Assembly (NCBI GenBank): GCA_021781775.1
Contig: JAJXWE010000001.1
Span: 1-39,012 of the forward strand
DNA: 39,012 nucleotides
From: Pseudomonadota bacterium
GTDB lineage: Bacteria; Pseudomonadota; Gammaproteobacteria; Steroidobacterales; Steroidobacteraceae
Direction of reading: 5' to 3'
Part shown: positions 26,959 to 36,142 of the stretch, piece by piece
How positions within the stretch are numbered: position 1 is the stretch's first letter
Layout of the letters: every line of letters starts with the position of its first letter
Notes under the pieces: generated by a model
What the model saw: only the letters and a program-made list of their open reading frames with translations
Databases searched by the model: none
What the model was told of the DNA's origin: nothing
Program-made: the position numbers and the translations under genes

Positions 26959-26977
26959 TCAGCACGACGCGCTTGCC

Positions 26978-27008
26978 TATCGTTTATTTATTCCATATTA
27001 TAGAAGTT
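26978..27008. other. AT-rich tract (25 of 31 nt A/T) in a G+C-rich context
   Basis: TATCGTTTATTTATTCCATATTATAGAAGTT, directly between the truncated transposase and the PadR start codon. It may hold the PadR promoter and/or be the AT-rich distal end of the GInt-like element. Confidence 0.6.
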
Positions 27009-27347
27009 ATGGGCAAGCGCGAATATCTCGGGCAGCTTGAGTTGATGGTATTGCTAGCGGTCGTCAGGCCATCTTCCCAAAAGGCCTATGGCGTATCGAT
27101 TGCACGTGACATCACCCGAATCAGCCGGCGGCAAGTGGCGCTGGCGAGCGTTTATGCGGCTTTGGAGCGGCTGGAGAAGAAGGGCTTCGTGGTTTCGAGC
27201 CTCGGGGAACCGCTGGTTGAGCGAGGCGGCAAGGCACGCACTTACTTTCGACCGACTTCGGCAGGGATCCAGGAAGCGCGCCAGACTCAAGCGACGCTCA
27301 TGCGGCTCAGCGGGGATCTATCCACCCTCAAAGGACAGCCCGCGTGA
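27009..27347 (+). CDS. PadR-family transcriptional regulator
   Basis: 112 aa from ATG 27009. The winged-helix pattern LGQLELMVLLAVVR..QKAYGVSIARDI...SRRQVALASVYAALERLEKKGFVSS is typical of PadR. Sampled 60-nt lines here are about 50% G+C. Confidence 0.85.
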   Translation: MGKREYLGQLELMVLLAVVRPSSQKAYGVSIARDITRISRRQVALASVYAALERLEKKGFVVSSLGEPLVERGGKARTYFRPTSAGIQEARQTQATLMRLSGDLSTLKGQPA

Positions 27348-27967
27348 CGATGCGAGAGGAGCCGACCTTCGCCGTCTGGCTCTTGAAGCATTTCGTCGCA
27401 AAAGAACGAAGGGAGTCACTGTTGGGTGATCTGTTTGAAGAATTCCAGGCGGGTCGAACATACTGTTGGTATTGGCGAGAAACGCTTGCGGCCCTCTTTA
27501 TATCCATGCGTCGCGGTGCGCGCGGGGTTTTTTCTTGGTGCGGCGCTCAAGTCGTTCTGGGGCTTGTCGCGCAATCTCTTGTTGTCTGGGCCGTCCTGCT
27601 TTCGGAGCAGTATCGAGAGCATTGCCCTAATTTGCCCGCCTATTCGCGCGACTCGACCGCTCTAATGCTATGGGCGGGGATGCTCCAGATCGCGATTGCT
27701 CTCGTGGTCTGGCTCAATCCACTGGACCGTGCTGCCCGTTCACACCGACGGCCCAGACTCTTCCGACTGTCAGTTGCAGCCTTCGCCGCTGTCGGGCTCA
27801 GCAGCGGCGCGTTCACTTGGGCAAGTACGGCTTCTTGCTCAATCGGCCCCTTTGCTTGTCAGTCCCCGACCATGCATTCATGCGCATCCCGCGTTGGTGC
27901 GGCTCCCGAGACACGACAGTCTGTGGGGCGTCCGAGTCGGCTCGCCCTGCGGGCCAGCTTGCACTGA
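27344..27967 (+). CDS. PadR-associated membrane protein (unknown function)
   Basis: 207 aa, GTGA overlap with the PadR stop (alternative ATG at 27350). The N-terminus AVWLLKHFVAKERRESLLGDLFEEFQAGR..CWYWRETL matches the conserved leader of proteins encoded after PadR genes, notably in Acidobacteria-type genomes as I recall. About 4 hydrophobic segments follow. Confidence 0.6.
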   Translation: MTMREEPTFAVWLLKHFVAKERRESLLGDLFEEFQAGRTYCWYWRETLAALFISMRRGARGVFSWCGAQVVLGLVAQSLVVWAVLLSEQYREHCPNLPAYSRDSTALMLWAGMLQIAIALVVWLNPLDRAARSHRRPRLFRLSVAAFAAVGLSSGAFTWASTASCSIGPFACQSPTMHSCASRVGAAPETRQSVGRPSRLALRASLH

Positions 27968-28074
27968 ATGCCCGGGCTTCACTGCTGCAGGCTTCGAGCG
28001 GCCGGATCTGAAATCTCATAGAGAACACCACGCTAGATTCGCAAGCCTTGCTCGCGCCAACCAGAAGTATCGAA

Positions 28075-29175
28075 ATGTCCCTCATTCTTTCCAAAATCAT
28101 TGAGGTGCTGTCCTGGCTCGCGGTGCCGGTCGGACTCGTCTGCTTGGTTGATGACTGGCTGCTCAGGCCGGCGCGCCGGGCGCGGGCCGGGGGTGTGCCG
28201 CCCGCCAAGCCTGCGGTGATCACCTTCTGCTATCGCGCGCTGCCCATCCTTCTGGTGGCGGTGGTGCTATGGATATTGGCCACTCAGAGGGTCAACTTCA
28301 GCCTGGTGCTGGTCATCATCACGGCCGTGAGCGGGCTGATCTGGCTGGTGGATGCGCTGCTGCTCGCGCCGCGCCGCAGGCGCGCCGCCGAGGCGCCGGG
28401 GGCCGATGGCAGCGCCCGGATCGAACCCACCACGGTCGATTACGCACGCAGCTTCTTTCCGGTGGCGCTCGCGGTGCTGCTGCTGCGTGCCTTCGTGATC
28501 GAGCCCTTCCGTATCCCCTCCGATTCCATGATGCCCACGCTCCTCGACGGGGACTTCATCGTGGTGGACAAGTTCGCCTACGGCCTGCGGCTGCCGGTCA
28601 TTCACACCAAGATCCTCGACACGGGCGAGCCGCATCGCGGTGATGTGATGGTGTTCCGCCCGCCTTTGCACCCTTCGCAGGACTGGATCAAGCGCGTGGT
28701 GGGCCTGCCTGGGGATCATGTCGTGGTGCGCGACGATCGCATCACGATCAACGGACAGGCGGTGCCGTTCAAGGTGACGGGCACCTACGACGACGGGTGC
28801 TACCAGAACATGGAGATCGCCACTGAGCATCTCGGCATGCACATTCACCATGCACTGCTGTGTCCCGTGCCGCTCGAGGAAACTTCCGACCCGCTGCCGA
28901 CCTGCGCGCGCGCCGATACGCACGGCTATATCTGCGGCGGCACGCCGCCACCGGATGCTCTGCCGCTGCTCGAACAAAAGGTGGTCGATATGACCGTGCC
29001 CCCGGGCGAGTACATGGTGATGGGCGACAATCGCGACAACAGCGACGACAGCCGCGTCTGGGGCTTCGTGCCCGAGAAAGATCTGGTCGGCAAAGCCGAG
29101 TTCATCTGGTTCAACTGGGACATCGCGCGCAAGGGCGGGCCGATCTGGGGCCGAATTGGCAAGGAAATTCATTAG
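28075..29175 (+). CDS. lepB: Signal peptidase I (S26 family), E. coli LepB-like architecture
   Basis: ATG 28075 is preferred over TTG 28048. Two N-terminal TM segments are present, plus the catalytic Ser box RIPSDSMMPTLLDGDFIVVDKFAYG, the GDVMVFRPP block, the Lys box IKRVVGLPGD and the box E motif MGDNRDNSDDSRVWGFVP. Confidence 0.9.
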   Translation: MSLILSKIIEVLSWLAVPVGLVCLVDDWLLRPARRARAGGVPPAKPAVITFCYRALPILLVAVVLWILATQRVNFSLVLVIITAVSGLIWLVDALLLAPRRRRAAEAPGADGSARIEPTTVDYARSFFPVALAVLLLRAFVIEPFRIPSDSMMPTLLDGDFIVVDKFAYGLRLPVIHTKILDTGEPHRGDVMVFRPPLHPSQDWIKRVVGLPGDHVVVRDDRITINGQAVPFKVTGTYDDGCYQNMEIATEHLGMHIHHALLCPVPLEETSDPLPTCARADTHGYICGGTPPPDALPLLEQKVVDMTVPPGEYMVMGDNRDNSDDSRVWGFVPEKDLVGKAEFIWFNWDIARKGGPIWGRIGKEIH

Positions 29176-29458
29176 GCGCTGTCCATTGCCCGCGCCCGGC
29201 GCGTCCCATTTAAGCAGCAATCCAGGGTCAGAATAATTTGCGCGAAAGGCGGTCGCTGGAATGTCTGCAGCTTCGCCCCCGGAACGGCAGCTTCTGGGCC
29301 GCGCCAATGGCTTTCCCGGGTTGAGCGGGCATTTGCGTAGAGCCGGGGCCAGGAACGGCGCCGCTTTGCACGCGCGCTCCCTGCATGCGTGGAATTGAGA
29401 CCCCGGAGAGGGAGCTGAAAAGGGCAGGCTTGCCTGTGTTGTGCCAGTTTACCACGCC

Positions 29459-29959
29459 TTATGTTGGGTTTAGCGTCTCGGCTGAGGGCAAAAGCCACTT
29501 CTCCATGCGATAGTTCGTCATGGACACGCCGCGCACTATGACCGTCTGCAGGCCGATAACGCGGAATCCAATTTCCTCAAATACGGGGCACGCTGTAATG
29601 CTCGCCTCCGTGTAGAGGCGATCCAGGCCTCGAGTCCGAGCCAGTCACTCGATATGCGTGAGCAGCGCGCGAGCGACGCCACGGCGCTGAAAGTCGGGAT
29701 GGACATAGAGCATGTCAATGTGGCCGTCTGGCTCAATGTCCGAGAAACCAGCGATGCGATGTTCGCACTCAGCGATCCAGGTCGGCTTGGCTGCGCATCG
29801 TCGTGCGAATGCATCATGATCGATCAGATCCGGCGCCCAAGCCTGCACTTGCGAGTCGGTATAGTCACGCCGCCCGATGTTCCGCACAGAAGTGCGGAAG
29901 AGAGCGACCAGACCCGCAACGTCGTCGGTTTGATAAGGCCGGATCGTGATTGCAGGCAT
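29459..29959 (-). pseudogene. GNAT-family N-acetyltransferase interrupted by an in-frame TGA
   Basis: The track ORF 29645-29959 ends ...FQRRGVARALLTHIE at TGA (29645-29647). The same frame continues LARTRGLDRLYTEASITACPVFEEIGFRVIGLQTVIVRGVSMTNYRMEK... to TAA at 29459-29461. That stretch is the expected C-terminal half of a GNAT fold, translated by hand from the reverse complement. Confidence 0.8.
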
Positions 29960-29965
29960 GTCGTC

Positions 29966-30220
29966 TCAGCTGCTCGGGCGTGAGCGGCTCAGTGCGATAG
30001 GCGCTGTCTCGAGACGACGCCGGAGGTCCGCCAACTCTCGGTCGCGACGCCCAAGCAAGCTCTGTAGGTCCCGGTAGGCTGCATAATAGTGGTCGACCAG
30101 CGCAGCAAGTTTACCGAGTTGTTCGCGGAGCTGCGCGGCTTCGCGCCGTAGCCGTAGAGTCGGCGCATCCGCGCGCGCTCTGCGCGCTGACTGGGGAGCT
30201 GAATCAGACGTTGTGCTCAT
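29966..30220 (-). CDS. ginD: Small helical/coiled-coil protein, fourth gene of the recombinase operon (GinD-like)
   Basis: 84 aa, Arg/Leu/Ala/Glu-rich with heptad-like stretches (LRREAAQLREQLGKLAALVDHYYAAYRDLQSLLGRRDRELADLRRRLE). Its ATG overlaps the stop of the upstream recombinase (ATGA at 30217-30220). The assignment rests on position and size only. Confidence 0.55.
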   Translation of the reverse strand: MSTTSDSAPQSARRARADAPTLRLRREAAQLREQLGKLAALVDHYYAAYRDLQSLLGRRDRELADLRRRLETAPIALSRSRPSS

Positions 30221-32094
30221 GGGGGTGCATCGGCGTCTATTGAACGAACCATGGAAAGTGCTTCGGTGAGGCGTTCACGGGCAATCTTGAGAGTCTGGGT
30301 CGGGAGCGATGGGTCGCGAAGCAGCGCCTCATGGCGCTTCGCCTGATCCAGCCAGTAGGAGCGATGCTCGCTTGAGATGACAAAATTCTTGCAGCGCGCG
30401 CAGGTCGAGGGTTCGCGCCACTCTGGGTTGGGCCCGAATGCGTCGCCCCGGCAGGCGCTGTACTCCTCGCGGTAGACACAGAAACCCCAGTCACAGACGC
30501 CGAGGGTGAGGCCCGCTTCGACGAGCAGCCGAGCGTAGCTCTTCACATCCTGCTTGATCGAGCGGCCCCGAAACTGCGGTCGCTTTGCCACGAGTTCCGC
30601 GCCTGCACGTCCGCCGAGCTGTGGAACGCTCAGCATGTGCTCCCAGGCCGCGACGGACTGCTGGAGGACCTCGGCTTCGATTTCCTGCTGCAAGGAGTAA
30701 TCGGTGCCGACATATCCGGTGTCCGTAATGGCGCGATCTCGGTGTCCCAGATGTTGGGCGAGAGCGAATAGCGATGTTCGGTCCCTCAGCGCAACGAAGC
30801 GAGCAAAAGTCTTGCGGCCCTGATGCGTCGAGAGCCGCCAGCGTTGTCCCCTGTGCAGCGGCAAGGAGAGTCGGGCTGCAAAACGTCCCAACCATTGGTT
30901 GATCCGAGTTGTGCTGGGAATCCAAAGCGGTTCGACGCTATTTGACTCCCACTCTGTTACACCACGAAATCCAGCTCGGGCTCGCTGCCAAAGCTCGGGG
31001 CGGCTGGTGCGAAGCCGATGGGGCGCGGAAAGCGCCTCAAGAACCGCGATAGCATGCACAGCAGGCTCGGGAGCCACCCACTGGTGTGATCGTCCATGAT
31101 AACCAGGTTCGAGCTTGAAAATGGTTCCGGTCAGGACGGCAACGGTACTAGCGGTTTCGTCGTCAAGCGGCCGGATGCAGCCGCTCTGAAGGTGCAGAAT
31201 CTCGCTCACCCGCGCACCGACGAGGTACGCGATCACGATGAAACAGGCGGCGTAGAGCATGTCGACGAGCTCGTAGAACTCCGAGAGCGTTCGAAATGTG
31301 TACACGCCGAGAGGAGTACAAATCGGCTGGGCGCGCAGCCGCCTGGCAGCCTCACGATAACGCGCTTTGTCGCCCGGGGCCCGGCGTTGAACCTGAGTCA
31401 TCAAAGCGGCGTAGATCTCGCGTGCGCGCAGGACATCAACCGCACAGGCGGTCAGAAACTCGATGGCCCCGTGCACCAGAGGCACGACGATGGCATCCGG
31501 CGTGTAAGCGCGAGAGACGCGCTGACAGCGGTATACGCCCGCCGCGGCGTGCGTGCCACGACCGGGCCAAGGATCGAATGTCAGTCCATCGCCGATGAGC
31601 GATTGGTAGCGGCGCAAGTAGCCGAACACTCTCAGGTGCATTGCAAGAGTTGTGGGCGTGATGGGCTTGCCATCGTGCCGTGTCCGCGCAGCGATCTGCT
31701 GCTTGAAGTCCGCTATCGCCGTCGCGTCGAGCTCGTCGAATCGCGTGAAGCCCTCGCACTCCATCCAACGGACCAGCGTGCGCAAATGGTTGAAATAGAC
31801 CAGTACTGTAACTGCGCGTTGGGCGACCCCGGTGCCCAGAGATCGTGTGCGAACGAGGGCGATGAGCCGACGGGCGCTCTCCAAGAGCGCCGCACAGGCT
31901 GGGTCGGTGAAGCGCCGTCCGCTCGGGAGCGCAAAAGCCCAGGAGAAGCGGACCGGACGCTCTTCCTCGAGTACAGAAGTCGGGGCGAAGATCCAGGTCG
32001 CATCGCTCCAGAGCGAATCACGCAGGAACCAATCGCGTCGACTCGCCTCGCTGGCAGACGCGTGGGATATCCGAGCTGTGGTTGCAGCGCTCAT
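30217..32094 (-). CDS. ginC: Tyrosine recombinase, third of trio (GinC-like)
   Basis: Start placed at ATG 32094, which overlaps the upstream stop (ATGA). The longer ORF from 32331 would overlap the previous gene by 240 nt. 625 aa. Catalytic signature: VGARVSEIL (Arg), HQGRKTFA (H-x-x-R), LGHRDRAITDTGYVG (His, Tyr). Confidence 0.8.
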   Translation of the reverse strand: MSAATTARISHASASEASRRDWFLRDSLWSDATWIFAPTSVLEEERPVRFSWAFALPSGRRFTDPACAALLESARRLIALVRTRSLGTGVAQRAVTVLVYFNHLRTLVRWMECEGFTRFDELDATAIADFKQQIAARTRHDGKPITPTTLAMHLRVFGYLRRYQSLIGDGLTFDPWPGRGTHAAAGVYRCQRVSRAYTPDAIVVPLVHGAIEFLTACAVDVLRAREIYAALMTQVQRRAPGDKARYREAARRLRAQPICTPLGVYTFRTLSEFYELVDMLYAACFIVIAYLVGARVSEILHLQSGCIRPLDDETASTVAVLTGTIFKLEPGYHGRSHQWVAPEPAVHAIAVLEALSAPHRLRTSRPELWQRARAGFRGVTEWESNSVEPLWIPSTTRINQWLGRFAARLSLPLHRGQRWRLSTHQGRKTFARFVALRDRTSLFALAQHLGHRDRAITDTGYVGTDYSLQQEIEAEVLQQSVAAWEHMLSVPQLGGRAGAELVAKRPQFRGRSIKQDVKSYARLLVEAGLTLGVCDWGFCVYREEYSACRGDAFGPNPEWREPSTCARCKNFVISSEHRSYWLDQAKRHEALLRDPSLPTQTLKIARERLTEALSMVRSIDADAPP

Positions 32095-33860
32095 CGCAGT
32101 GGAGGGAGCGAGGGCAGCTCGGGAAGCAGCCGCTGCGCCTGCGCGATCTCGGCAGTTGCAAAGCGAGTCAGAATGTCCTCCTCGAGAATCCTGAGCGGCG
32201 GCGCATAGATCGATTCCCAGCGCACCGGATGTACGTGCGCCGCGGCGGACGCCAGGTGATCCCGCGCTTGAAGAAGCCGCGCGAGCGTGCGCGTATCGTG
32301 CGGGATCACGGCGTTGGGGCAGGTGAAGCAACCCAAGAAGTTGCCGCAGAGCTCCCCGGCTCGAGTACCAGGGGCGACTCCGGCCAGTGGGTCAAGGCAG
32401 TCGAATCCGAACATGGAAACGGCCGTTGCAGGCGGGACGACCATCTGACCGCCGGGTGCCGTGGCGGTGGTTGCTGGAGTGACGCCGCCATGATCGAGCC
32501 CTCGTGTGGTTCCTTCGAGATGCCCTACAAACACGCGTTGCAGGGCTGCGATCCGCGTCCGATTTTGCGCCTCGACCTCCGGAGACTCCACATATCCGAT
32601 GGTCGTGGAGAGCTGCGCGTGGTTCGCCACCCCCTTCACCGTCATGAGATCGCCTGTGGCCCAGTAGATGCTCGTCAACATGCTTGGCCGGATCGACGCC
32701 GGCGCGACGTGCTTGAGCCCATGCCGTACCTCGAAGTCCCGAATCGGCTGCACCAGCACGTAGTTTGTCAGCACGTGGACGCCCGACGAGCTCTTAAGGA
32801 GAAATAGGCGCTCGCGCTCAGTAATCGTCGAGTGCGGGCGCAAACGGCGCGTCCACTCGATGAGCTCACGCACGAGCATCGGTGGCTCGATGGGTGTGGA
32901 GCTACGGAAAGAGCGGCGCTGAAGCGCGGCCGCTCGAGGCTTGGCCCATACGAGAAACTCTCGATCCTCGAGCAGCGGAACCGGCTGAAGGCACTGGCAC
33001 TCGAGCTCGGCGATGGCCCACGCGTTGCCAGCGGTGTGAATCAGGATGGCGAGGTAATACGGCAGAATGGTGTCGAGGCCCGGATACAGACATGATTCGA
33101 CGTGCTTCCGGCCCCCGACCTTCGAGACCGCCAAGTAACAGCGGTAATTGCCTCGAGAAACGAGTACCTTGTCTCGAGGTACGACGCCACCGAAACGCTG
33201 ATCGATGTACGCCAGGAGCGCGCCACGAGACGCGAGCGGGTCAGCGCAGTCTTGCCGAGCGGACTCCCGTTCTTCGTCGGCGCGCCGGCGTTCGGTGCGT
33301 AGCTGCAGGATATCGCGCTCGCACGCTCGAAGCAGTGCGCGGATCTCCTGCGCGCCCGCCTTTACGCGCCTCAGCGTGTCGCGCCGTCGCCACGGAAACG
33401 GATTGAAGGGATACTCGATACGGGCGAGCAGTCCCGGACGGCAGCGTTCAAGCCACTGCAAGAGCTTGGTCACCGCTCCGTAAACCGCGCTGCGCGTCGG
33501 CTTGCTCCAAGGCCGGCCGTTCGCGGCCCGTTGGTTATTGAGCCACTCGACGTACCGCGCAAGAACGTCGCCGCCGAGGTCGTTGAGGCTGCGCACCGCG
33601 TCCGTCTCCGCGACAAAGCGCGCGAAGACCTTCAGCCGGCGCCACGAATCCTGGGCAGAATGTGGTGGTCGAGCCCCGTAATGATTACGGAAGGCATCGG
33701 CCAATGCTCGCCGCACGTCCTTTGGCAGCGTCAGCGTACCGAAATCGACCACCACGCCGCCCAACCGCAGCGGAGCACCGAGCGACCCTGCGGTCCCGAG
33801 ACCCGCAGGGTCTCCGCTTTGCGGCAATACTCTCCGGATGCGTTCTCGCCCCCGTGCCAT
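32091..33860 (-). CDS. ginB: Tyrosine-recombinase-family protein, second of trio (GinB-like), with a non-canonical active site by eye
   Basis: 589 aa, starting 3 nt after the upstream stop. The C-terminal box ANHAQLSTTIGYV (His...Tyr) and SIRPSMLTS (Arg) are recognisable. However, the box I Arg position reads TAGNAWAIAEL, and the His of H-x-x-R appears to be replaced (PASIRPS). Confidence 0.75.
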   Translation of the reverse strand: MARGRERIRRVLPQSGDPAGLGTAGSLGAPLRLGGVVVDFGTLTLPKDVRRALADAFRNHYGARPPHSAQDSWRRLKVFARFVAETDAVRSLNDLGGDVLARYVEWLNNQRAANGRPWSKPTRSAVYGAVTKLLQWLERCRPGLLARIEYPFNPFPWRRRDTLRRVKAGAQEIRALLRACERDILQLRTERRRADEERESARQDCADPLASRGALLAYIDQRFGGVVPRDKVLVSRGNYRCYLAVSKVGGRKHVESCLYPGLDTILPYYLAILIHTAGNAWAIAELECQCLQPVPLLEDREFLVWAKPRAAALQRRSFRSSTPIEPPMLVRELIEWTRRLRPHSTITERERLFLLKSSSGVHVLTNYVLVQPIRDFEVRHGLKHVAPASIRPSMLTSIYWATGDLMTVKGVANHAQLSTTIGYVESPEVEAQNRTRIAALQRVFVGHLEGTTRGLDHGGVTPATTATAPGGQMVVPPATAVSMFGFDCLDPLAGVAPGTRAGELCGNFLGCFTCPNAVIPHDTRTLARLLQARDHLASAAAHVHPVRWESIYAPPLRILEEDILTRFATAEIAQAQRLLPELPSLPPLR

Positions 33861-33863
33861 GTT

Positions 33864-35096
33864 CTAAGCCTGATCGAGCAGGGAGTCCAGAACGTCCGTC
33901 AAAACTACCCTATCGACGGCGATCGCGCGCAGGTATCGATCTGTTGTCGCGATGTGCTCGTGCCCCATTAGGACCTTCACGATCAGCAGCGGGTTGATCG
34001 CCGCGCCCTGGCTGGCAAGTCGCTCCAGTCTCGCCAACAGCATGCACGCAAAGGTCGAACGCAGCAGATGCGTGGTTGCGCGAAATCCGCAAACCTCGCC
34101 GGTATCGGCGGTCACTTGCTGGTAGCTGTTCTTCTTGACCGGGCGGCCCCAGCTGTTGATGAACAGCTCTCCGCGATCCACTGCTCCCCGCTTCCGTACG
34201 GCGCGCTTGATCCAGGCACGACGGTGCTCGGCCAAATAGCCGGTGGTCTCCTGCAAGAGCGAGTCCGCGGCGATCACGTACCCGCTCTTGCGTCCTTTGC
34301 GTAGCACTTCAATCACGTGATGCGGCGGCGCGCCAGAGGATCGGCGGGCGACCCCGTGCTTCAGGACATCGTTTACTGTGAGCCTGAGCAACTCGCTCAC
34401 TCGAAGACCGGTATACAGCTGCCAGCGCGCCATCAGGTCGTACGGGGGCGGCAGCCGCGCCAGCAGCTCACGCAGCTGCGCGCTCGTCAAGGGGCGAGGT
34501 AGAGTCTCGAACTGGCGCAACACGAACAGACTGTGGTCAGCACCGGTGTCGTTCCTTCGCGCCCGTGAGCGGCTTCGGCGGGAGATCGTGAAATCGGTCC
34601 CACGTCCTGCCAGGTCAGAACTGCTCAGCCAACCGTTGCGGAGCATCCACTCATAGAATCGCAATACACCGCGCACCCGGTGGTTGATGGTCCGCACGCC
34701 ATATGGGCGCCCCGTGTGAGCGCTAGGCTCGCGCAACATGCGGTTGCGGTAGGCAACGAGATCGGCCGCATCGGCCGAGCTCCATGGGATGCCGCTCTGT
34801 TCGAGAGCGTCGAACCAGTCGTACAGAACCTCCATGTAGGTGTTTAACGTGTCGGAGGTATGCGCCCGCCGGATCGCGTGCTCGTGCAAATATGCGAGTG
34901 CCGGCTCAATGAGCTCGAAGTGGGCGCTGAAAAGAAGGGGGAATCCTGCCGGCCTCGGCTCCCGCAACTTGATCGACTGCGCGGCGGCCGCCGCCTCTCG
35001 TAGCTGCGGGATGACCTCTGACGGCGATGGCAGGATGCCCTTGCGAACGATCTCAACCACGAGCGCGTATACGCTCTTGTAGGCACTTGACGGCAT
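33864..35096 (-). CDS. ginA: Tyrosine recombinase, first of trio (GinA-like)
   Basis: 410 aa. There is an N-terminal SAM-like core-binding domain (...LVAYRNRMLRE...TINHRVRGVLRFYEWM). Catalytic residues: YTGLRVSELLRL (Arg), HLLRSTFA (H-x-x-R), LMGHEHIATTDRYL (His, Tyr). An alternative GTG start at 35060 is possible. Confidence 0.85.
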   Translation of the reverse strand: MPSSAYKSVYALVVEIVRKGILPSPSEVIPQLREAAAAAQSIKLREPRPAGFPLLFSAHFELIEPALAYLHEHAIRRAHTSDTLNTYMEVLYDWFDALEQSGIPWSSADAADLVAYRNRMLREPSAHTGRPYGVRTINHRVRGVLRFYEWMLRNGWLSSSDLAGRGTDFTISRRSRSRARRNDTGADHSLFVLRQFETLPRPLTSAQLRELLARLPPPYDLMARWQLYTGLRVSELLRLTVNDVLKHGVARRSSGAPPHHVIEVLRKGRKSGYVIAADSLLQETTGYLAEHRRAWIKRAVRKRGAVDRGELFINSWGRPVKKNSYQQVTADTGEVCGFRATTHLLRSTFACMLLARLERLASQGAAINPLLIVKVLMGHEHIATTDRYLRAIAVDRVVLTDVLDSLLDQA

Positions 35097-35364
35097 CCAC
35101 GAACGAGAGTTTCTCCACGTGCATCGTCAAGTCGATCGCGCCTCCGCCGCCCTTCTTCGCACGGGTGTCGTACCACTTGGCCCCAGACGTCAGGATCTCA
35201 AACTCACCGCACGCGGTACGCAGGTGCCAGCGACGGCTCGTCATGTCCTTTATGGGCCTGTAGGTCGGATCTGCCTTGAGATAGATCGCCAGTAACGCCA
35301 GGGCGTCCTCGCCGTGCATGGCGCGAAGGCGCGCGACTGTTGCCAGATTAAATCTTCGACCCAC
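35053..35364 (-). CDS. Small protein resembling a primase-type CHC2 zinc-finger domain that has lost its Cys/His ligands (function unknown)
   Basis: The pattern LATVARLRAMHGEDALALLAIYLKADP.YRPIK....RWHLRTACGEFEILTSGAKWYDTRAKKGGGGAIDLTMHVEKLSFVDAVKCL parallels the DnaG/TraC N-terminal finger (...CPFH...F.CFGCG.GGD.I.F.M......F.EAV..L) without the metal ligands. The start is uncertain: GTG 35364 is chosen, and the ORF is open up to 35505. The 3' end overlaps the ginA-like start by 44 nt. Confidence 0.45.
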   Translation of the reverse strand: MGRRFNLATVARLRAMHGEDALALLAIYLKADPTYRPIKDMTSRRWHLRTACGEFEILTSGAKWYDTRAKKGGGGAIDLTMHVEKLSFVDAVKCLQERIRARG

Positions 35365-35647
35365 AGCTCGGCTCTCGAAGTCGCACAGACCCTCCCCGGA
35401 CCCCTCCCGGCTACTCGCCTCTTGCAGAGCGCCTTGGGAAAGGAAGGGGGAGTCTAGAAGAGATCGGAAAGAGATGGAGGGCGGGCTTGCTGGAGTTCCC
35501 AACATATCACGCCGGACTTGCCGTCAAGATCTGCGCGCGACCATTCTGGCCGTGCTCGCGAGCGCCTCCGGCGATCCTGACGGCTTCGCTGCGGCGTGGG
35601 GCTTCGTCCTCGGGCAATCCCGCCCGAGATCAAGACGGAGCTCGCTC

Positions 35648-36142
35648 ATGAGCACGCTCAATTCGCTTCTCATTCGCGATCAACAGCTCGGCGTCGTGCG
35701 CAACGCGACGGCCGACGAAATCATCGAGGCCGCCCGCTCATGCGTGGCGCACAAGGTGCGCCGTGGCGCGTCTCTCGCGTCACCGATTGCCGCCCGGGAC
35801 TATCTGGTCCTGCGCTTCGCAGAGCTGCAGCACGAAGTCTTCTGCGTGATCTACCTGGACAGCCGGCACCGCGTGATCGAGTGCCAGGATCTCTTCCGCG
35901 GCACGATTGATGGAGCGAGCGTCCATCCGCGGGAGGTCGTGAAGGAGGCTCTGCGACGGAACGCCGCCGCGTGCGTGCTGGTGCACAATCACCCGAGCGG
36001 CGTCGCGGAACCGAGCCCGGCAGACGAGCTGATCACCCGGAGACTTCAGGACGCGCTGCAGCTCGTCGATATCCGCGTGCTCGATCACCTTATCGTGGCG
36101 GCTGGCGGCATCACCAGCTTTGCGGAGCGCGGTCTTCTGTGA
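35648..36142 (+). CDS. radC: RadC-like JAB/MPN-domain protein (DUF2466)
   Basis: 164 aa from ATG 35648. Seen: EVFCVIYLDSRHRVIECQDLFRGTIDGASVHPREVVKEALRRNAAACVLVHNHPSGVAEPSPADELITRRLQDAL.LVDIRVLDHLIV, including the HNHPSG JAMM-like motif. This short form is typical of mobile elements. Confidence 0.9.
   Translation: MSTLNSLLIRDQQLGVVRNATADEIIEAARSCVAHKVRRGASLASPIAARDYLVLRFAELQHEVFCVIYLDSRHRVIECQDLFRGTIDGASVHPREVVKEALRRNAAACVLVHNHPSGVAEPSPADELITRRLQDALQLVDIRVLDHLIVAAGGITSFAERGLL

Follow-up and report, generated by a model that had tools for sequence, protein, structure and literature searches.

A probable SE-type transposon with a fifth conserved core gene, inserted at a predicted hairpin leader upstream of radC in a Steroidobacteraceae island

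SEs (strand-biased circularizing integrative elements) carry intA, tfp without a catalytic set, a large catalytic intB and srap (PMC10214605). Their terminal inverted repeats are imperfect and 13-19 bp long (motifs C and C'), their attL and attR recombine into a strand-biased circle with no empty site left behind, and no homologues of Tfp or Srap were reported outside the Gammaproteobacteria (PMC10214605). SEs themselves were described as confined to a part of the Gammaproteobacteria, and their kinship to GInts and Tn554 was called vague (PMC10214605). GInts contain ginA and ginB with the RHRHY set, ginC without the first arginine and a small ginD (PMC5385486). The DNA analysed here is a stretch of 39,012 nucleotides from a member of the Steroidobacteraceae (contig JAJXWE010000001.1, positions 1 to 39,012), termed the window. 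An operon of recombinase genes in it was originally predicted to belong to a GInt-type island. Positions 29459-35507 are very probably an SE-type transposon instead, with the following parts:

29459-35507, minus strand: whole mobile element, probably of SE type, 6,049 bp; the match with 94-95% identical copies stops at these points, and the ends are homologous to those of the related loci L015 and L039 (fetched loci are cited by such numbers)
35053-35319, minus strand: X, fifth conserved core gene, 88 aa, with a 44-nt overlap with the start of A
33864-35096, minus strand: A, IntA-like ordinary tyrosine recombinase, 410 aa, Pfam Phage_integrase, with R232, H343, R346, H379 and Y388
32091-33860, minus strand: B, Tfp-like recombinase-fold protein, 589 aa, from profiles and conservation in 57 sequences
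30217-32094, minus strand: C, IntB-like large tyrosine recombinase with Cys-rich C-terminus, 625 aa counted from ATG, from conservation in 36 homologues
29966-30220, minus strand: D, Srap-like accessory protein with the coiled-coil half only, 84 aa, from the family alignment
29459-29959, minus strand: cargo gene for a GNAT acetyltransferase, inactivated, Pfam Acetyltransf_10 (7.8e-14)

The core operon is in all likelihood X-IntA(A)-Tfp(B)-IntB(C)-Srap(D), joined by GNAT as the single cargo gene; the SE-like machinery would be a known one and the element a variant of it. Family alignments built from 35-64 loci were compared by HHalign with two SE references, plasmid modules reached through C, one from Vibrio parahaemolyticus and one from Pseudomonas aeruginosa. 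Entries in the tfp-srap list of PMC10214605 (Additional file 3) have the Srap accession of the Pseudomonas module as their similarity reference. A matched SE IntA with 99.5%, B matched Tfp with 99.0% in Vibrio and the second gene of the Pseudomonas module with 99.7%, and C matched IntB with 98% in Vibrio and the third gene of the Pseudomonas SE with 100% (1.7e-38). The full-length D family reached 96.3% on the Pseudomonas SE Srap (E=1.9e-9). The SE gene order intA-tfp-intB-srap is thus matched position by position with 96-100%. As GInt references, the proteins of E. coli IAI1 and O55:H7 CB9615 were taken from the curated ginC-ginD list of PMC10214605. In BLASTP and HHalign comparisons with these proteins, taken as single sequences or two-sequence profiles, B, C and D remained at ≤3%. 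A gave 45-61% on the E. coli GInt proteins, which is generic recombinase similarity.

In Pfam, A was found as Phage_integrase (3.9e-13). B had no Pfam match and only marginal Xer-type matches in NCBIfam, and C had no match in Pfam, NCBIfam or PDB sequence searches, so these searches yielded nothing useful for either protein; the recombinase nature of both is visible only via profiles and motifs. In C, the catalytic residues R295, K327, H424, R427, H451 and Y461 are invariant or nearly so among the 36 homologues. In B, examined for conservation in 57 sequences, Arg-I is replaced by N279 and His-I by S389, with R391, H414 and Y423 retained, which means a partial loss of catalytic residues. Given the fact that A and C have full R-H-R-Y sets while B lacks Arg-I, the catalytic pattern is of the SE type: the arginine is missing from the second gene as in SE Tfp and not from the third as in GInt GinC.

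Selection was estimated against L015, a copy 78% identical to the window at the DNA level. dN/dS was lowest for A (0.11), followed by C (0.15) and B (0.17), with X and D at 0.21 each. With values between 0.11 and 0.21, all five genes are under purifying selection and their frames are real, the 84-aa D included. Some gene callers choose a 59-aa open reading frame in another frame at the place of D. In most relatives, D consists of a TetR-like helix-turn-helix (HTH) and a coiled coil, which is also the build described for Srap. The D proteins of the window and L015 retain the coiled coil only and lack the N-terminal TetR-like HTH (compare the D genes of L039 and L027), yet they are under purifying selection. 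X showed 60-75% identity in every relative examined. Its 231 stand-alone homologues contained no Pfam domain. For X there was a weak hint of a CHC2 zinc ribbon (Pfam E=0.023 only), and a model of X (34 homologues, pLDDT, the predicted local distance difference test score, of 65) gave no significant fold match in PDB. X was not present in the Vibrio and Pseudomonas SE loci examined.

These results bear on several claims of the original prediction. Four coupled minus-strand genes for proteins of 410, 589, 625 and 84 aa had been described, and the open reading frames confirm both their sizes and their spacing, with one 3-nt gap followed by two ATGA overlaps in A-B-C-D. The small fourth gene was rightly included, as its ATGA overlap is conserved in L015 in addition to its dN/dS of 0.21. 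All three had been named tyrosine recombinases; this holds directly in Pfam for A, whereas for B and C it depends on profiles and motifs. The kind of element was recognised, namely a mobile element with a recombinase operon and a small coiled-coil protein, but not its family. The identity with ginABCD, for which a profile comparison had been suggested, is not supported, with ≤3% for B, C and D on the two E. coli GInts and 96-100% on the SE modules.

The borders of the element were defined from its other copies and are marked by the following sites:

29453-29458, no strand: 6-bp core at the intA-distal junction, CACGCC on the plus strand and GGCGTG in the orientation of the element, identical to the core at 35508-35513
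35508-35513, no strand: 6-bp core at the intA-proximal junction, GGCGTG
29459-29468, minus strand: 3' terminal inverted repeat (...CCCAACATAA), 9/10 identical to the 5' end and kept in L015 and L224-L226
35498-35507, minus strand: 5' terminal inverted repeat (ATATGTTGGG...), 188 nt before X

Copies of the window lineage were reached via cluster members at ≥90% identity; their DNA is 94-95% identical and lies in other contexts. At least four such contexts were found:

L224: 5' neighbour Antirestrict, 3' neighbour ParB_N
L226: 5' neighbour RadC, 3' neighbour HTH_17
L227 and L228: 5' neighbour RadC, extra cargo of 1.25 kb on the 3' side
L229: 5' neighbour Antirestrict, extra cargo on the 3' side

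HTH_31 is also among the neighbours, on the side opposite to Antirestrict or RadC. The similarity of these copies to the window ends at both GGCGTG cores. The window, L224, L226, L227 and L039 have GGCGTG at either end, and the cores co-vary, with GGTGTG at both ends of L015 and GGCGCG versus GGTGCG in L229. The terminal repeats ATATGTTGGG and TTATGTTGGG match in 9/10 positions with no clear match past 10 bp, and the flanking direct repeat GGCGTGrTA in 8/9. The 3' terminus CTAAACCCAACATAA has 67% A+T. The end architecture is fixed within the family, as an L005-type relative (56% identity in C) forms a sharply bounded 5,924-bp unit without cargo that is 100% identical in unrelated flanks.

The GNAT gene starts 7 nt past the stop of D, and its own stop codon is formed by the final 3 nt of the element. 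An alignment with the other copies showed a single in-frame CGA to TGA change at 29645-29647; the gene is intact with 166-170 aa in L224-L229. A 5' border ~65 nt further in was considered in view of the likeness between the element's first 30-60 nt and unoccupied leaders. It was rejected because the far flank holds the other leader half behind an identical core, because the distance from the 5' end to X (188 nt) fits the 191 nt of L005, whose element is sharply bounded, and because the core is where the copies with 95% identity part from the window. A membership of radC in the element was ruled out by its varying flanking gene (RadC, Antirestrict or DUF932), and a TCTAGA motif near the 5' end is not family-wide. 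A consensus sigma-70 scan detected no promoter within the element. One may speculate about a hybrid -35/-10 promoter with a 15-nt spacer at the 5' junction.

The original prediction had extended the element over ~8.5 kb, with its far border at 26961. Copies in other flanks set it to 29459-35507 and thus to 6,049 bp; near-identical copies end at 29459, and different DNA follows beyond. A tract of 81% A+T, proposed as the far end, does exist at 26978-27009, but it sits just upstream of the PadR start codon (27009). The proposed 13/17 flanking repeat is likewise real and as weak as claimed; it is at chance level, with two such pairs in the search space, and marks no border. The estimate for the proximal border was good, as 35506-35522 overlaps the true core at 35508-35513. 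Concerning the cargo, it does start right after the fourth gene, and GNAT is a pseudogene by one nonsense codon, whereas lepB and the PadR pair, assigned to it as well, lie outside the element together with the AT-rich tract and the transposase fragment. The PadR gene (acidobacterial-type paralogue model; region 26978-27347) pairs with a gene for a membrane protein with 'permease prefix domain 2' (27350-27967); this is an ordinary regulator-membrane protein pair and not an island end.

The target of the window copy is a leader next to radC that is split by the element:

35508-35640, minus strand: target hairpin leader on the host side, between the element and radC, from RNAalifold and DNA folding; the insertion is at the 3' stem base, directly after …CGGCGTG
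29400-29452, minus strand: displaced right half of the leader (GTAAACT...GGCAAGCCTGCCC), which fits the pattern after GGCGTG in unoccupied leaders
35648-36142, plus strand: radC, intact flanking gene typical of an integrative and conjugative element (ICE), NCBIfam RadC (3e-49); RadC is also found beside L226-L228

The window copy lies ~140 bp upstream of the intact radC. The sequence ...TTGACnGCrAGnnCGGyGTG precedes every copy of the window lineage, and the target specificity is apparent from at least five independent insertions, each after ...CGG(C/T)G(T/C)G in a hairpin leader. A metagenome scan with the TTGAC...CGGyGTG motif found 120 sites, of which 40 have CACGCCGCAGCG or GGCGGGATTGCC upstream as well. 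X, A or B followed in none of these 40, which are therefore regarded as unoccupied host sites. For many of the unoccupied sites, the distance to the start codon of a leftward radC is ~130-200 nt. RNAalifold predicted a long hairpin for 24 unoccupied leaders, with compensatory changes at several positions; in the predicted stem, CACGCCG pairs with CGGCGTG and GCCGTCAA with TTGACGGC. The same stem was predicted by DNA folding of the window site. The element is positioned directly 3' of this stem, with the other leader half at the far junction, and its first ~30 nt imitate the displaced half. Overall, the leader (35508-35640 and 29400-29452 in the window; L104-L223) appears as a covarying hairpin of ~115 nt with a TTGAC box in the stem. 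The genes behind such leaders are radC, anti-restriction, DUF932 and HTH genes close to ssb and parB-like genes. Leading regions, in which Frpo single-strand promoters are known (PMC11541004), typically hold this gene set. The leader is a candidate for an Frpo-like promoter of this single-strand kind in the leading regions of ICEs.

The element may be active at present and move with a strand bias through a circular form. IntA and IntB with their complete catalytic sets would exchange strands across the 6-bp spacer beside both ends and thereby produce a circular copy; the coiled-coil protein Srap and Tfp with its missing Arg-I would be non-catalytic partners. The predicted attS junction reads …CCCAACATAA-N6-ATATGTTGGG…, the predicted circular junction ...CTAAACCCAACATAA-N6-ATATGTTGGGAACTCC... 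and the predicted repaired site ...GGCAAGTCCGGCGTGGTAAACTGGCAC.... The circle would then integrate site-specifically. In this lineage, the site would be the 3' stem base of the conserved hairpin leaders that conjugative islands have upstream of radC, anti-restriction and DUF932 genes, with the element's 5' end as a mimic of the displaced leader half. The element could also hitch-hike with the island at tRNA-Phe, which holds its own P4-type integrase as well as ICE-type replication and partition genes.

A further idea is tentative and rather unlikely to be correct: the element could recognise folded Frpo-like single-strand promoter hairpins in the leading region of conjugative islands and insert at the stem base, so that its look-alike 5' end replaces the displaced -10/outer-arm segment. 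If so, the neighbouring early gene would stay expressed, and entry of the island as single-stranded DNA might switch on the recombinase operon. The strand bias of SEs would then be tied to a structured single-stranded target, comparable to integron attC. Together with the sister elements that insert into radC and carry a spare radC, this would also provide an evolutionary link between SEs and Tn554.

Several points weigh against an active SE-type transposon. The identity to characterised SE proteins is low (~24% for IntB), gene X was not found in SEs, and the inverted repeats of ~10 bp are shorter than the 13-19 bp of SEs. As D lacks the HTH half of most relatives, the lineage could be impaired. 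A circular form, for which a check had been suggested in the original prediction, was looked for, and no such junction was present among all fetched loci. No empty site was found for the window population either; look-ups with the exact RadC and LepB proteins gave only occupied sites from the same study. Finally, three loci (L120, L168 and L212) have element-like first 40-60 nt after the leader without X, A or B; they could represent solo ends, ancestral cassettes or miniature derivatives. In L168 (site at 913-932), an intact GNAT gene comes straight after the element-like end.

Other explanations of the locus were weighed against the same data. The operon could belong to the surrounding conjugative island as its integration module, or be a dead remnant; in neither case would it be an independent transposon. 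ICE-type genes (radC, RPA, DUF2958 and HTH_17) indeed surround it, and the exact B protein was found on nine contigs with one shared context in 9/9. This is nevertheless very improbable, as the island has a P4-type integrase of its own beside tRNA-Phe, the same 6-kb unit is found between different genes with sharp, repeat-flanked ends, and its five intact genes are under purifying selection. Even less probable is a GInt in which a ginABCD operon is followed by GNAT, lepB and the PadR pair as ~3 kb of cargo and in which AT-rich DNA at ~26961-27010 forms the far end. It would account for a coupled four-gene operon at one end, for cargo that begins 7 nt past the fourth gene and for the relatively AT-rich 3' terminus. 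It is disfavoured by B, C and D, which have no similarity to the two curated GInts singly or as profiles, by the loss of Arg-I in the second and not the third gene, by near-identical copies that stop at 29459 with different DNA beyond, and by the position of the AT tract directly before the PadR start codon.

Least probable is that the Tn554 family proper (TnpA/TnpB/TnpC) has a proteobacterial member here. A 6-bp core, an ordinary and a large recombinase and a small helical protein would agree with it, and sister elements enter radC between the HNH and PSG codons, close to the conserved site of Tn554, Tn558, Tn559, Tn5406 and Tn6188. However, Tn554 has neither a Tfp counterpart nor gene X (PMC10214605), its genes are tnpA, tnpB and tnpC only compared with five conserved genes here, and the window copy lies ~140 bp upstream of radC and not inside it.

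At the start of the window, tRNA-Phe (57-132) is followed by a P4-type integrase (372-1667; Arm-DNA-bind_3, Phage_int_M and Phage_integrase), and the source contig continues past the window with RPA, DUF2958 and HTH_17 genes. The element is therefore nested in a larger ICE-like island. A large island apparently encloses the entire window, and its metabolic cargo comprises malate synthase, a TonB receptor and a glutamine synthetase/aldehyde dehydrogenase/GATase cluster.

Hosts found in a genome scan were Piscinibacter (including P. sakaiensis 201-F6), Variovorax, Hydrogenophaga, Paraburkholderia, Roseateles and Ideonella as well as Steroidobacteraceae, Lysobacterales and a metagenome-assembled genome (MAG) of the Vicinamibacterales. 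Plasmids of Agrobacterium, Mesorhizobium and Sphingobium gave matches at 35-37% identity. Most of the genome-scan relatives have the 5' end TTAGGTTGCATTC and are inserted inside radC between the HNH and PSG codons, and these radC-inserting relatives contain a complete spare radC near their 3' end. This arrangement, a radC split at these codons and a spare radC just inside the 3' end, was seen in L023 (6408-14244) and also in L029, L032, L035-L038, L073 and L100. Arrays of truncated radC N-termini suggest repeated insertion into the spare copy.

Other copies interrupt Box II codons of tyrosine recombinases (RIT trios included) and genes for a serine recombinase, a ParB-like protein and an SMC-like ATPase. 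The cargo-free 5,924-bp copy (L005, 6576-12499; L006, L013 and L014) lies within the Box II 'LGH' codons of other tyrosine recombinase genes, among them those of RIT trios and a sibling element's A gene. Twelve copies (L061, L082 and 10 other Burkholderiales loci) share a common site in a gene for a large coiled-coil SMC-like ATPase, after the H of HPYL(T/V)MPSR. The family appears to prey on other mobile elements, and its targets are conserved features of these: the hairpin leader, the JAMM motif of radC and recombinase Box II codons.

Compared with known systems, RIT elements share three adjacent recombinase genes with the element. Their proteins have 315-410 aa, all with the catalytic tyrosine, and their inverted repeats 34 bp, in contrast to 410, 589 and 625 aa and 10 bp here; RIT trios are targets of the window family in its relatives and not kin. 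The likeness to Frpo (PMC11541004) and integron attC concerns the target only, a conserved covarying hairpin with a TTGAC box that is repeated upstream of early genes. The window leader has no sequence similarity to known Frpo, and the likeness is one of the target, not of the element.

GInts (PMC5385486) resemble the element in their three recombinase-fold genes with a small coiled-coil gene at one end, in cargo that begins from the stop of the fourth gene, in short imperfect flanking repeats, in site specificity and in a short AT-rich 3' end. They differ in GinB with ~435 aa versus 589 aa for B and in flanking repeats of 10-17 nt versus 6-9 nt. For annotation, the gene count alone is no ground for naming such operons GInts. 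With the Tn554 family (PMC3788773), the element has in common a small and a large tyrosine recombinase, a small third protein and a 6-bp junction sequence, and the conserved radC site is shared with the sister elements of the window copy. The Tfp-like B and X are extra here, the hosts are Proteobacteria or from soil, and the target is a leader; the comparison covers gene content and site. A radC site common to Tn554 of Firmicutes gives a handle on a shared origin of these transposons.

The closest agreement is with SEs, in the gene order and the profile-level homology of all four core proteins, in catalytic IntA and IntB around a second gene without catalytic residues, and in a fourth protein that consists of a TetR-like HTH and a coiled coil in the wider window family. 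Also shared are imperfect terminal inverted repeats, a 6-bp spacer that may differ between both ends (fingerprint and footprint), specificity for a target, a compact size and a nested position within conjugative elements. The differences are the extra gene X of the window family, a D without HTH in the window lineage, shorter inverted repeats, ~24% identity in IntB and the targets, which are the hairpin leader, radC or recombinase genes here. Relatives of the window family occur in Burkholderiales, Steroidobacteraceae and a Vicinamibacterales MAG. The four-protein SE machinery would with this be placed in Burkholderiales, environmental Gammaproteobacteria and an acidobacterial MAG, and the window family adds X to it as a new, fifth conserved core gene.

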